A stretch of DNA of 64,000 nt from the NCBI GenBank assembly GCA_964542945.1, contig CAZIVC010000004.1, forward strand, positions 8,062 through 72,061, given 5' to 3'. The stretch's first letter is position 1, and every line of letters starts with the position of its first letter. Origin of the DNA: an uncultured Gammaproteobacteria bacterium. GTDB taxonomy: Bacteria; Patescibacteriota; Patescibacteriia; 2-12-FULL-60-25. Under the pieces are notes generated by a model that was not told the origin of the DNA, did not search any database, and saw only the letters and a program-made list of their open reading frames with translations. This document shows, piece by piece, positions 35,924 to 36,551 of this stretch. The position numbers were made by a program, and so were the translations under genes.

Positions 35924-35944
35924 TGGCGGAGAGGGCGAGATTCG
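35924..35944 (-). repeat. 21-nt perfect copy of the 3' end of tRNA-Ser (T-arm 3' half + acceptor + CCA)
   Basis: TGGCGGAGAGGGCGAGATTCG at 35924-35944 is identical to 36108-36128. Confidence 0.9.
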
Positions 35945-36077
35945 CCCGCGCCTCTCGTCGCGTCGTCACGCTCCTCGGTCTGGGCAGCGCCTCGCGGTTT
36001 CGCTTGCAAGCGAAACATCGCTCCGGCGTTCTCATCTCGCACGCAAGCAAAACGGTTTGCTTGCTATCCGCCATCGC

Positions 36078-36103
36078 AAAAGCCCCGGGTTTACCGGGGC
36101 TTT
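36078..36103 (-). terminator. rho-independent terminator after tRNA-Ser
   Basis: 8-bp stem AGCCCCGG 36081-36088 / CCGGGGCT 36094-36101. A T-run follows on the minus strand. Confidence 0.75.
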
Positions 36104-36107
36104 ACTC

Positions 36108-36195
36108 TGGCGGAGAGGGCGAGATTCGAACTCGCGATACCTTGCGGTATGCTCGCTTTCCAAGCGAGTGCACTAGACCACTATGCGACCTCTCC
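36108..36195 (-). tRNA. tRNA-Ser (anticodon GGA), CCA encoded
   Basis: Minus strand reads GGAGAGG TC GCA TAGTGGTCTAG TGC A CTCGC TTGGAAA GCGAG CATACCGCAAGGTATC GCGAG TTCGAAT CTCGC CCTCTCC G CCA. Perfect 7-bp acceptor stem, 5-bp anticodon and T stems, long variable arm (class II) and discriminator G. Confidence 0.9.
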
Positions 36196-36441
36196 GTGAT
36201 TTGATTGTACAAGGCGACGAAACGCCTCACCTCCTTTATAAGATTTTATTTGCCGTTCTCGCGCACGTGCTGAAGCTTCGTTGGAAGCTGCTTCGGTATA
36301 CACGATTTCCCAAGGCCCTTTTCCTTTTGTTGACCGATTAAATCCTTTGCTGTGATCACTGAGGCGTCGTTCCATGTCGGATGTGCTCCCGATATAGTGA
36401 CGGCCAGACGTTTGGCTGCGCAGGATATACACCGTGTACAT
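36181..36441 (-). CDS. GIY-YIG domain protein (small YhbQ/UPF0213-like nuclease family)
   Basis: MYTVYILRSQTSGRHYIGSTSDMERRLSDHSKG ... ARARERQIKSYKG, i.e. GIY-(x10)-YIG plus conserved R and E. The last 15 nt, including the TAG stop, are nt 1-15 of the tRNA-Ser gene. Confidence 0.8.
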   Translation of the reverse strand: MYTVYILRSQTSGRHYIGSTSDMERRLSDHSKGFNRSTKGKGPWEIVYTEAASNEASARARERQIKSYKGGEAFRRLVQSNHGEVA

Positions 36442-36492
36442 AGATAATGATCGCTTTTCCCGCCTTTGGCGGGACCCCGCCGTAGGCGGTGG

Positions 36493-36551
36493 CCAAGCGA
36501 GTGCACTAGACCACTACTCCGCCCCGCTAAAAGCGGTGGCGCGACCTCTCC
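36493..36551 (-). pseudogene. displaced, decayed copy of the 5' half of tRNA-Ser (nt 1-35) with a 24-nt insertion in the D-loop
   Basis: 36541-36551 is identical to 36185-36195 (11/11). 36493-36516 is identical to 36160-36183 (24/24). The single A of the D-arm is replaced by the 24-nt hairpin 36517-36540. Identity stops after the second anticodon base. Confidence 0.8.

Follow-up and report, generated by a model that had tools for sequence, protein, structure and literature searches.

A small GIY-YIG nuclease gene and a double-hairpin element at a disrupted tRNA-Ser locus: a candidate homing-like cassette of bacterial tRNA genes

How does a bacterial tRNA gene come to lie between broken copies of itself, with a nuclease gene that reads into its 5′ end? 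The question is raised by a locus on the minus strand of a 64,000-nt stretch of DNA from an uncultured bacterium (contig CAZIVC010000004.1, positions 8,062 to 72,061; the whole stretch is referred to as the window). The locus contains an intact tRNA-Ser(GGA) gene, a small GIY-YIG open reading frame (ORF) and two disrupted copies of the same tRNA, termed here pseudo-tRNA A and pseudo-tRNA B. With somewhat better than even confidence, it is read as one copy of a widespread selfish, homing-like cassette that lives in tRNA genes and that is made up of a minimal YhbQ/Slx1-type nuclease and a double-hairpin element (DHE). The anatomy of the locus and its recurrence in other genomes are held with much higher confidence than this homing-like explanation. 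Read 5′ to 3′ on the minus strand, the upstream copy, the ORF and the intact tRNA are arranged as follows:

36541–36551, minus strand: pseudo-tRNA A, nt 1–11 of tRNA-Ser(GGA), an exact 11-nt copy (12 nt if one upstream base is counted)
36517–36540, minus strand: single GC hairpin of 24 nt, GCCACCGC-TTTTA-GCGGGGCGG AG, in place of A12 in the D loop of pseudo-tRNA A, read directly
36493–36516, minus strand: pseudo-tRNA A, nt 13–36, an exact 24-nt repeat (24/24) of 36183–36160 that stops after the second anticodon base
36458–36492, minus strand: DHE of about 35 nt, between G36 and A37 of pseudo-tRNA A
36492–36475, minus strand: hpA, the first hairpin of the DHE, CCACCGCC-TAC-GGCGGGG
36474–36458, minus strand: hpB, the second hairpin of the DHE, TCCCGCC-AAA-GGCGGGA
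36451–36457, minus strand: pseudo-tRNA A resumed, nt 37–43 (AAAGCGA), a 7/7 match to 36159–36153
36181–36441, minus strand: GIY-YIG nuclease gene, 86 aa, catalytic domain only (Pfam PF01541)
36108–36195, minus strand: intact tRNA-Ser(GGA) with encoded CCA (ARAGORN; Rfam RF00005, 58.3 bits, full-length match)

The tRNA copy resumes past the two hairpins, and the double hairpin is therefore an insertion in the anticodon loop of pseudo-tRNA A. Pseudo-tRNA A is interrupted by the cassette and is therefore a dead copy. The RNA fold of 36551–36442 has an energy of −55.7 kcal/mol (z = −4.05). The single hairpin in the D loop is 79% identical to hpA, and D-loop hairpins occur at the equivalent place in L002, L009, L036, L038, L054 and L152 (L numbers denote loci and contigs used for comparison). 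A 9-nt spacer separates the resumed nt 37–43 from the ATG of the ORF. The resumed part extends to about nt 66 in L004 and L005 and shows conservation across this pair of genomes. At its 3′ end, the ORF overlaps the intact tRNA by 15 nt, and the codons G-E-V-A and the TAG stop are nt 1–15 of the tRNA. The intact gene is the sole tRNA called by ARAGORN in the window.

A first-pass annotation of the sequence had listed five features here: a displaced copy of the tRNA 5′ half, a run of GC hairpins, the GIY-YIG ORF, the intact tRNA and a downstream copy of its 3′ end. All five are present on the minus strand at the positions that it gave, and its call of an intact tRNA-Ser(GGA) at 36195–36108 agrees with ARAGORN and Rfam. 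The upstream 24-nt copy is exact, as described, but spans nt 13–36 rather than nt 13–35. The overlap of the ORF with nt 1–15 of the tRNA is also as described, but it consists of four sense codons and TAG rather than five codons and TAG. The statement that identity ends after the second anticodon base is not congruent with the resumption of AAAGCGA past the hairpins.

An inverted 16-nt near-copy (14/16) of a tRNA anticodon-arm segment, TTGGAAAGCGAGCATA, lies on the plus strand at 36575–36590, 25 nt upstream of pseudo-tRNA A. This match is near the noise level of the repeat search.

The arrangement recurs in other genomes. A scan of one genome per species with one peptide pattern found 257 relatives, and the best 80 of these 257 were examined. 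Together with the window and two metagenome contigs (L002 and L003), they give 83 homologous loci. A same-strand tRNA abuts the ORF at 71 of the 83 loci and an opposite-strand tRNA at none; the background tRNA density is 0.129 per kb. The stop codon lies within the tRNA call at 34 loci, and the (H)GEVA* terminus of several homologues is an in-frame reading of the 5′ end of tRNA-Ser. An extra partial copy of the abutting tRNA is present at 64 of the 71 loci, compared to 13 of 71 in a control that used the tRNA of an unrelated locus. In L001, L002 and L003 (proteins 52–67% identical), a tRNA-Ser 5′ piece is followed by both hairpins, AAAGC, the ORF and the tRNA. The junction at which nt 1–36 are followed by hairpins recurs with perfect identity in L004, L005, L014, L015, L023 and L052. 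These junctions bear out the earlier proposal that the upstream half marks an insertion between the second and third anticodon bases, with the intact gene downstream.

The tRNAs involved are those for Ser, Pro, Gly, Glu and Tyr. Ser-GGA, Glu, Gly-CCC and Tyr are found downstream of the ORF, and Ser-GCT, Pro and Gly are found upstream of it. In Bacteroidota loci, a tRNA often lies on both sides. The hosts include Patescibacteria, Omnitrophota, Bacteroidota, Ignavibacteria, Zixibacteria and others, and some genomes contain several copies (L024/L030 and L040/L041). A rough protein tree groups the sequences by tRNA type, which is confounded with taxonomy. Targeting of the anticodon loop had been proposed at first, and the phenomenon is specific neither to that loop nor to tRNA-Ser.

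Five Bacteroidota loci (L053, L062, L064, L082 and L083) contain ARAGORN tRNA-Pro calls in which CCCCGCC-NNNN-GGCGGGG forms the D arm. These copies directly follow the GIY-YIG stop codon, and the remainder of each is identical or near-identical to the adjacent normal tRNA-Pro. Such hairpin-bearing copies would inflate annotated tRNA counts.

The stereotyped double hairpin is the constant part of the insert, and the ORF is optional. A strict form of the hairpin motif is present at 73 of 84 GIY-YIG loci. Its density is 1.94 per kb within 300 nt of the ORFs and 0.16 per kb elsewhere in the loci, a difference of about 12-fold. The DHE stems are almost always CCCGCC, and the loops are variable and 3–5 nt long. 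Compensatory stem variants occur occasionally (e.g., TTCCGCC/GGCGGAA). In partial tRNA copies, the hairpins lie within loops or are swapped for whole arms at the base of the arm. A hairpin takes the place of the D arm in tRNA-Pro copies, of the anticodon arm in tRNA-Gly copies, of the variable arm in tRNA-Ser(TGA) copies and of the T arm in several copies. In L011, L016, L019 and L040, one hairpin is nested in the loop of another. Within the 64-kb window, the CCGCC-N-GGCGG motif is confined to the locus (two strict copies, 0.65 expected), where a third hairpin copy is of a shorter CCGC type.

An exact-pattern scan of metagenome contigs found the DHE on at least 120 contigs, with 131 copies among the matches listed, to which the following counts refer. 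Viral contigs gave zero matches. A GIY-YIG ORF starts 0–120 nt downstream on the same strand, typically at +11 to +46, for 22 of the 131 copies and lies elsewhere within −400/+700 nt for a further 12. The flanks of the element have the consensus TTG-CCA[element]GGGA-AAA(A/G)C. This consensus fits the anticodon loop of tRNA-Ser(NGA), some tRNA-Ser D loops (GGTTG^AAAG, L143) and, loosely, the T loop. Solo copies are also found in the loops of terminator-like hairpins (L092, L117 and L133). The flanks of solo copies have a direct- or tandem-repeat score of 10 or more in 17% of cases, compared to 1.5% in the control. Inverted complementarity of the flanks, the mark of an insertion into a hairpin loop, was rejected as a general rule; it is not enriched overall, and the clear cases are L092, L117 and L133.

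Some solo DHEs lie in tandem repeats of 7–8 nt, either (GAAAATT)n or (GGAATTT)n (L161, L118, L132, L176, L150, L154–L156, L174, L179, L201 and L203). They are often beside long GC palindromes such as CCTGCCTGCCGGCAGGCAGG. These contexts look like lineage-specific repeat families that carry the DHE.

Several loci contain more than one unit. In L170/L196 and L184, a unit made up of a 17-nt leader, nt 1–36, the DHE, nt 37–49, a spacer and the ORF is repeated in tandem before a leader and an intact tRNA. The intact tRNA was therefore invaded again, and the leader is part of the duplicated block. Since the duplicated units contain 16 nt of leader or more, a long target-site duplication with its start exactly at tRNA nt 1 was rejected. 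Arrays of leader, 5′ fragment and hairpin are found upstream of intact tRNAs and contain up to seven units. The seven units of L067 are identical, and the units of L035, L021, L037 and L071 differ by single-nucleotide polymorphisms (SNPs). In L180, three different tRNA-Ser(TGA) genes (X, Y and Z) are nested, Z within Y and Y within X. On the 5′ side, X5′ (GGAAGCG...), the DHE, Y5′ (GGTGGGG...) and a hairpin arm precede the intact tRNA Z. On the 3′ side, Z is followed by a hairpin arm, a hairpin, Y3′ (...CCCCACC) and X3′ (...CGCTTCC).

The tRNA-Ser 5′ halves were compared in 35 non-redundant, metagenomic or genomic pairs of a DHE and a downstream tRNA-Ser. The two halves are identical in nine pairs and have one to six differences in four. 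At least seven pairs (L007, L045, L095, L120, L121, L167 and L177) have a clearly different tRNA-Ser upstream. In L007, the halves agree over the 11 nt that adjoin the insert but not in the acceptor and D regions, a mosaic that looks like a co-conversion tract. Since tandem re-invaded units, nested split tRNAs and heterologous upstream halves all occur, the tRNA part arrives with the insert. In about nine of the 35 pairs, the 5′ half is duplicated but there is no room for an ORF.

These comparisons bear on the first-pass interpretation, in which a GIY-YIG cassette entered the tRNA gene and regenerated it with a replacement 5′ half. Insertion with regeneration is well matched by the perfect-identity junction, found also in nine of the 35 pairs, and by the tandem re-invaded units. 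The proposal that the GIY-YIG cassette carries the replacement half stands in part: the tRNA part does arrive with the insert, but the case for the ORF as its invariant carrier is weakened. Duplicated segments without a GIY-YIG gene had been named as an observation that would count against the gene as a necessary companion, and the pairs with no room for an ORF are such segments. The duplicated part is also not limited to a tRNA half, as had been thought, and includes leader sequence upstream of nt 1.

L004 and L005 are syntenic, and their comparison separates conserved from diverged parts. The flanks are 41–54% identical and the ORFs 70% identical at the nucleotide level. The 5′ half of the pseudo-tRNA is 100% identical, and nt 37–66 of the pseudo-copy are about 86–94% identical. 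The DHE stems are kept and the loops differ. The non-coding parts are therefore constrained or being homogenised.

The 86-aa protein is a predicted nuclease. It matches the Pfam GIY-YIG domain PF01541 over residues 1–67 (56.8 bits, cut-off 22.6; E = 2.8e-15), and Y5, Y16, G18, R26, H30 and E62 are invariant in an alignment of the window protein and 34 homologues (35 sequences). The closest solved structures in a profile search are the UPF0213 protein BH0048 (1zg2, E = 3.5e-10) and then EF2693 (1ywl, E = 8.8e-7). These are followed by Slx1 (6seh, 4xlg and 7cq2) and then by the catalytic domain of I-TevI. The single catalytic domain and the nearest relatives in UPF0213 agree with the YhbQ-type assignment made at first. 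The protein also has weak PHROG matches to homing endonucleases. By profile, the family contains 21,716 clusters at 50% identity at E ≤ 1e-3 and 4,768 at E ≤ 1e-10. In related ORF pairs, dN/dS is 0.07–0.13, and the protein is therefore maintained by selection.

Gene callers shorten the window ORF to 64 aa (public call P0001). Homologues elsewhere (P0006, P0028, P0106 and many more) are over-extended by 20–50 aa upstream, through the hairpins, and have tails such as ...GVPP..AGK.... These N-terminal tails appear to be artefacts of the GC hairpins.

The second disrupted tRNA-Ser copy, pseudo-tRNA B, was recognized from a 21-nt exact repeat, conserved blocks and compensatory pairs. It lies downstream of the intact tRNA, between two terminator-like hairpins:

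36078–36103, minus strand: terminator-like hairpin 3′ of the intact tRNA, a 10-bp perfect stem with a 5-nt loop, then CTTTT
35924–36074, minus strand: pseudo-tRNA B, with the outer stem ATGGCGGA/TCCGCCAT
36064–36043, minus strand: hairpin at the variable-arm position of pseudo-tRNA B
36040–36036, minus strand: T-stem 5′ strand of pseudo-tRNA B, GCGAG, then AT
36033–35945, minus strand: T-loop insert of about 90 nt, which contains the palindrome 36016–35997
35944–35924, minus strand: end of pseudo-tRNA B (CGAAT, T-stem 3′ strand, acceptor 3′ strand and CCA), equal to the last 21 nt of the tRNA
35892–35922, minus strand: second terminator-like hairpin, 3′ of pseudo-tRNA B, with 16-nt arms that are 94% complementary

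The first terminator-like hairpin is not called by a simple scan, because its T run is short. The second is placed on the plus strand by the scan, and its region resembles that of the first (74% over 58 nt). Both hairpins and both palindromes of the first-pass annotation were found. GAGAGG also precedes the downstream 21-mer in pseudo-tRNA B. The two T-stem strands of pseudo-tRNA B pair in four of four sequences in RNAalifold, with compensatory changes, and the RNA fold of 36077–35921 has an energy of −72.5 kcal/mol (z = −3.85).

Similar copies are found in other lineages. A lineage-matched T-stem 5′ strand and then ATGAGAAC/G follow the intact tRNA-Ser in the window, L006, L052, L171 and L097, and a tRNA 3′ fragment that starts in the T loop recurs 95–165 nt after the intact tRNA in L006, L022, L047, L052 and L076. 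The insert is about 90 nt long in the window and 95–110 nt in other lineages. Distant lineages have the blocks GATGAGAACGCCGGAGCGRTG and CCGCGAGGCGGTGGCTAGGCCGAG in common, with variable hairpins at fixed positions (of the CCCGCC type in L006 and L171). The insert occurs in Ser-GGA, Ser-GCT and Ser-TGA contexts and may be a separate small element or structured RNA. The downstream 3′ copy, first described as an independent att-like footprint with a 163-nt cargo, is the end of this second broken tRNA-Ser and not an integrase att scar.

On the minus strand, 36030–36201 has a match in Rfam, below threshold, to the Xanthomonas small RNA sX4 (29.7 bits, cut-off 70). The consensus of sX4 consists of a tRNA-Ser and a tail that ends in GGGGGGUGAGA. 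This match hints at a similar tRNA-Ser tail in Proteobacteria.

The locus is reproduced in an independent assembly from another sample (L085, ENA ERZ4216102), which covers 34692–36910 of the window with three SNPs, none within 35900–36600. An assembly artefact was rejected, since L085, made with another assembler, is identical across the whole locus. Contigs of k-mer assemblers end inside these tRNAs in L001, L003 and L084, as expected for repeats. The first-pass annotation had reported no integrase, and no integrase, transposase or recombinase is found within about 8 kb on either side; an integrase remnant was rejected on this basis. An Rfam scan of 35850–36650 matched no intron or ribozyme family at E ≤ 5. 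An intron, ribozyme or known RNA was rejected, as the scan yields the tRNA, the only match above threshold, and the sub-threshold sX4 match. A genome-wide REP-like repeat was rejected for the window, where the motif is found only at the locus. Phage origin was rejected given the zero DHE matches in viral contigs and the marginal PHROG and PADLOC matches.

The neighbouring genes encode LepA, an amidase, Lgt, an oxidoreductase, two DsbA-like proteins, a C25 peptidase and an ABC-F protein. Elsewhere in the window, one ORF of 3650 aa spans 10628–21580 on the plus strand. GC skew is positive in all 2-kb bins (1–64000), with no skew switch, and the bin at 52001–54000 has 60% GC, compared to roughly 50–57% in the remaining bins.

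If the favoured reading of a homing-like cassette is correct, the DHE would insert into loops at TTG^AAA-like sites, which in tRNA-Ser lie between the second and third anticodon bases. The duplicated block, a 5′ half in the window and elsewhere a 5′ half with leader, would rebuild a complete tRNA just past the ORF. The ORF would read into this rebuilt tRNA and take its stop codon from the D loop, and pseudo-tRNA B would follow as a second dead copy with a different insert in the T loop. Movement would begin with a cut by the nuclease within a loop, or close to one, of a tRNA gene that has no insert. The break would be repaired by copying a cassette-bearing copy, with the conserved tRNA halves as homology arms. 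Only products that keep or bring an intact tRNA would survive, because the tRNA is essential. This intact copy could still be cut, and re-invasion would therefore give rise to tandem and nested arrays. Hairpin-only units would be non-autonomous derivatives served in trans. The tRNA promoter probably drives transcription, and a cut by RNase P at tRNA nt 1 would strip the mRNA of its stop codon, which would lead to a low nuclease level.

A further step is possible but doubtful. The cassette may represent a new class of prokaryotic mobile element, a bare nuclease and a DHE that read structure (tRNA or hairpin loops) and act as a "cleave-and-rescue" drive. An essential tRNA gene would be knocked out and its replacement delivered or rebuilt alongside. 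The host could then not lose the element, and nested and tandem scars would be left.

Several observations weigh against a homing-like cassette. The intact tRNA beside the ORF retains the presumed target, which a classical homing endonuclease would not tolerate. The protein has the catalytic domain only, without the DNA-binding domain of homing endonucleases, and its match to the NCBIfam family grpIintron_endo is below the cut-off (24.1 bits, cut-off 56.05) and covers residues 3–37 only. A long specific target is hard to explain with a bare catalytic domain, and such a protein is ill suited to sequence-specific cleavage. That it cuts by structure, as Slx1 does, is a guess. No empty site or presence/absence polymorphism was recovered between close relatives, and the only close relative, L085, has an identical arrangement. 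The signs of movement are indirect and consist of the heterologous and mosaic halves and the copy-number arrays. In the empty-site search, a flanking 188-aa protein has a single homologue, 99% identical, on L085 (same population); an exact look-up of a 192-aa version of this protein gave no match; and the DsbA-like neighbour matches one Logan contig, which ends inside the tRNA. Both tRNA halves of the window are identical and show no trace of foreign origin, and because the repeated segments are identical the history of this locus is unreadable. The strong purifying selection and the conserved pseudo-tRNA leader would also fit a host-useful gene. Among the matches listed, the interval −400/+700 nt is free of a GIY-YIG gene for 97 of the 131 DHE copies, and many copies are located outside tRNA sequence. 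Because most copies are without a nearby GIY-YIG gene, the hairpin may move by another agent.

This last point leads to an alternative that is unlikely on balance, in which the hairpin is the real mobile agent, a loop-targeting element like a miniature inverted-repeat transposable element (MITE) or REP. It would be moved by another enzyme or by replication template switching, and the GIY-YIG gene would be an accessory or hitch-hiker, for example a structure-specific nuclease that processes hairpins in a RAYT-like role. Stable GC hairpins would provoke slippage that duplicates nearby DNA, including tRNA halves. The DHE copies without a nearby GIY-YIG gene fit this explanation, as do the pairs with a duplicated 5′ half and no ORF, the short direct and tandem repeats that flank solo DHEs, the hairpins nested in hairpins and in terminator loops, and the presence of the structure-specific nuclease Slx1 among the near solved relatives. 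It is not congruent with the fixed short distance and strand of the ORF from the DHE when the ORF is present, with the hairpin at most GIY-YIG loci, with the purifying selection on the ORF, or with the restriction of the hairpin to the GIY-YIG locus in the window, unlike dispersed REPs. Nor would slippage by itself give rise to split tRNAs that are nested or to an upstream half that comes from another tRNA-Ser. If the locus is instead an operon that serves the host and is passed on vertically, the GIY-YIG protein would act in housekeeping, for example by repairing DNA at tRNA genes that are heavily transcribed and prone to form structures. The pseudo-tRNA with its hairpins would be transcribed together with the tRNA, as a structured leader at the 5′ end or as a signal for processing. 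This is improbable. The gene is always on the tRNA strand, its dN/dS is about 0.1, no empty site came to light, the pseudo-tRNA and DHE stems of L004 and L005 are conserved between diverged flanks, and the ORF and tRNA have a stop codon in common at 34 loci, all of which an operon would accommodate. It would not account for the different tRNAs (Ser, Pro, Gly, Glu and Tyr) with the gene on either side, the tandem and nested arrays, the upstream halves from another tRNA lineage, the several copies per genome, or the identical hairpins in unrelated non-tRNA contexts. All of these are typical of selfish DNA.

Two explanations from known tRNA biology have far less weight. A direct repeat of a tRNA 3′ end that starts in the T loop is the classic signature of an integrase site, and the 21-nt repeat of the window has this form. 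The duplicated tRNA ends might then be the attL/attR remains of deleted integrase islands, with the GIY-YIG gene as left-over cargo. This is very improbable, as no integrase or recombinase lies within about 8 kb and integrases regenerate the 3′ part of a tRNA, not an upstream 5′ half. The repeats moreover enclose an insert that is conserved and structured and that is found again in other lineages, together with a T-stem strand matched to the lineage. An intron-containing or split tRNA, the halves of which are spliced, or an assembly artefact of a repeated tRNA, is barely credible. Bacterial group I introns of tRNA genes occupy the anticodon loop, which is also interrupted here, and k-mer contigs break inside the tRNA. 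However, no intron or ribozyme family was matched at E ≤ 5 in the scanned region, a complete and normally folding tRNA rather than a 3′ half follows the ORF, and the independent assembly spans the locus with no differences within it.

If the cassette is homing-like, a function and life-style would be available for a very large set of unexplained small GIY-YIG genes. It would also explain puzzling tRNA fragments and odd tRNA calls in uncultured bacteria, such as tRNA-Pro with a GC-hairpin D arm, as well as assembly breaks at these tRNAs and mis-called (truncated or over-extended) ORFs. The cassette would show site selectivity by a nuclease that has no DNA-binding domain and a selfish element that needs no intron to occupy an essential RNA gene. 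The tRNA-Pro version is found in Bacteroidales-type genomes, and since some Bacteroidales species are genetically tractable, the idea is directly testable. In full-text literature, with most subscription journals outside the coverage, no account was found in which small GIY-YIG genes are coupled to tRNA fragments that bear hairpins. The cassette is apparently undescribed, and an earlier description may nevertheless exist.

Among known systems, tRNA-targeting integrative elements have tyrosine integrases that cross over in the anticodon or T loop. The cassette resembles them in its insertion in tRNA loops, in the replacement tRNA part that is supplied and in the displaced fragment that remains. 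It differs in that there is no integrase, the 5′ half is replaced in the window, and the inserts are 35–330 nt rather than kilobases. The 21-nt exact repeat is of the kind that such elements leave, but the DNA that it bounds is the conserved T-loop insert of a pseudo-tRNA.

In REP/RAYT and REPIN systems, short GC-rich hairpins, often in doublets, flank one small enzyme gene and many copies are enzyme-free, as with the many enzyme-free hairpins and hairpin-flanked nuclease genes found here. Unlike RAYT, which is an HUH/Y1 transposase, the cassette enzyme is a GIY-YIG protein. The cassette hairpins are concentrated in tRNA pseudo-copies and not dispersed between genes, and in the 64-kb window the motif is not dispersed at all. 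UPF0213/YhbQ and Slx1 are the nearest sequence relatives with solved structures. YhbQ-type genes are not known to be mobile or linked to tRNAs. Slx1 acts with Slx4 on branched DNA, unlike the stand-alone cassette nuclease.

Another parallel is found in fungal mitochondria. A mobile ORF in Allomyces mitochondria reportedly brought a replacement atp6 end (a finding of 1994 ascribed to Paquin, Laforest and Lang), and double-hairpin elements are said to occur in the same mitochondrial genomes (ascribed to Paquin and colleagues, 2000). In both the Allomyces case and the cassette, an essential gene receives a GIY-YIG ORF along with a replacement for part of the gene, and a remnant of the displaced original persists. 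The GC-rich double hairpins of the Allomyces genomes, which behave as small mobile inserts, are also similar. The comparison is one of arrangement; the Allomyces ORF is in a protein-coding gene of fungal mitochondria and the cassette is in bacterial tRNA genes. In the cassette, the hairpin and the ORF are physically coupled and entire RNA arms are exchanged for hairpins.

Free-standing GIY-YIG homing endonuclease genes include those of the phage T4 Seg proteins (SegB in a tRNA cluster) and I-TevI. As in these systems, the cassette nuclease gene lies beside or inside a conserved host gene, here a same-strand tRNA at 71 of the 83 loci. Spread by double-strand-break repair with co-conversion of the flanks would be expected, and the L007 mosaic resembles its outcome. 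Unlike these genes, the cassette encodes only a catalytic domain of about 80 aa, is chromosomal in uncultured bacteria (with zero hairpin matches in viral contigs), duplicates part of its target gene, brings stereotyped hairpins and has its presumed target regenerated adjacent to it. By analogy, the cassette would nonetheless work most like the free-standing GIY-YIG homing endonuclease genes.

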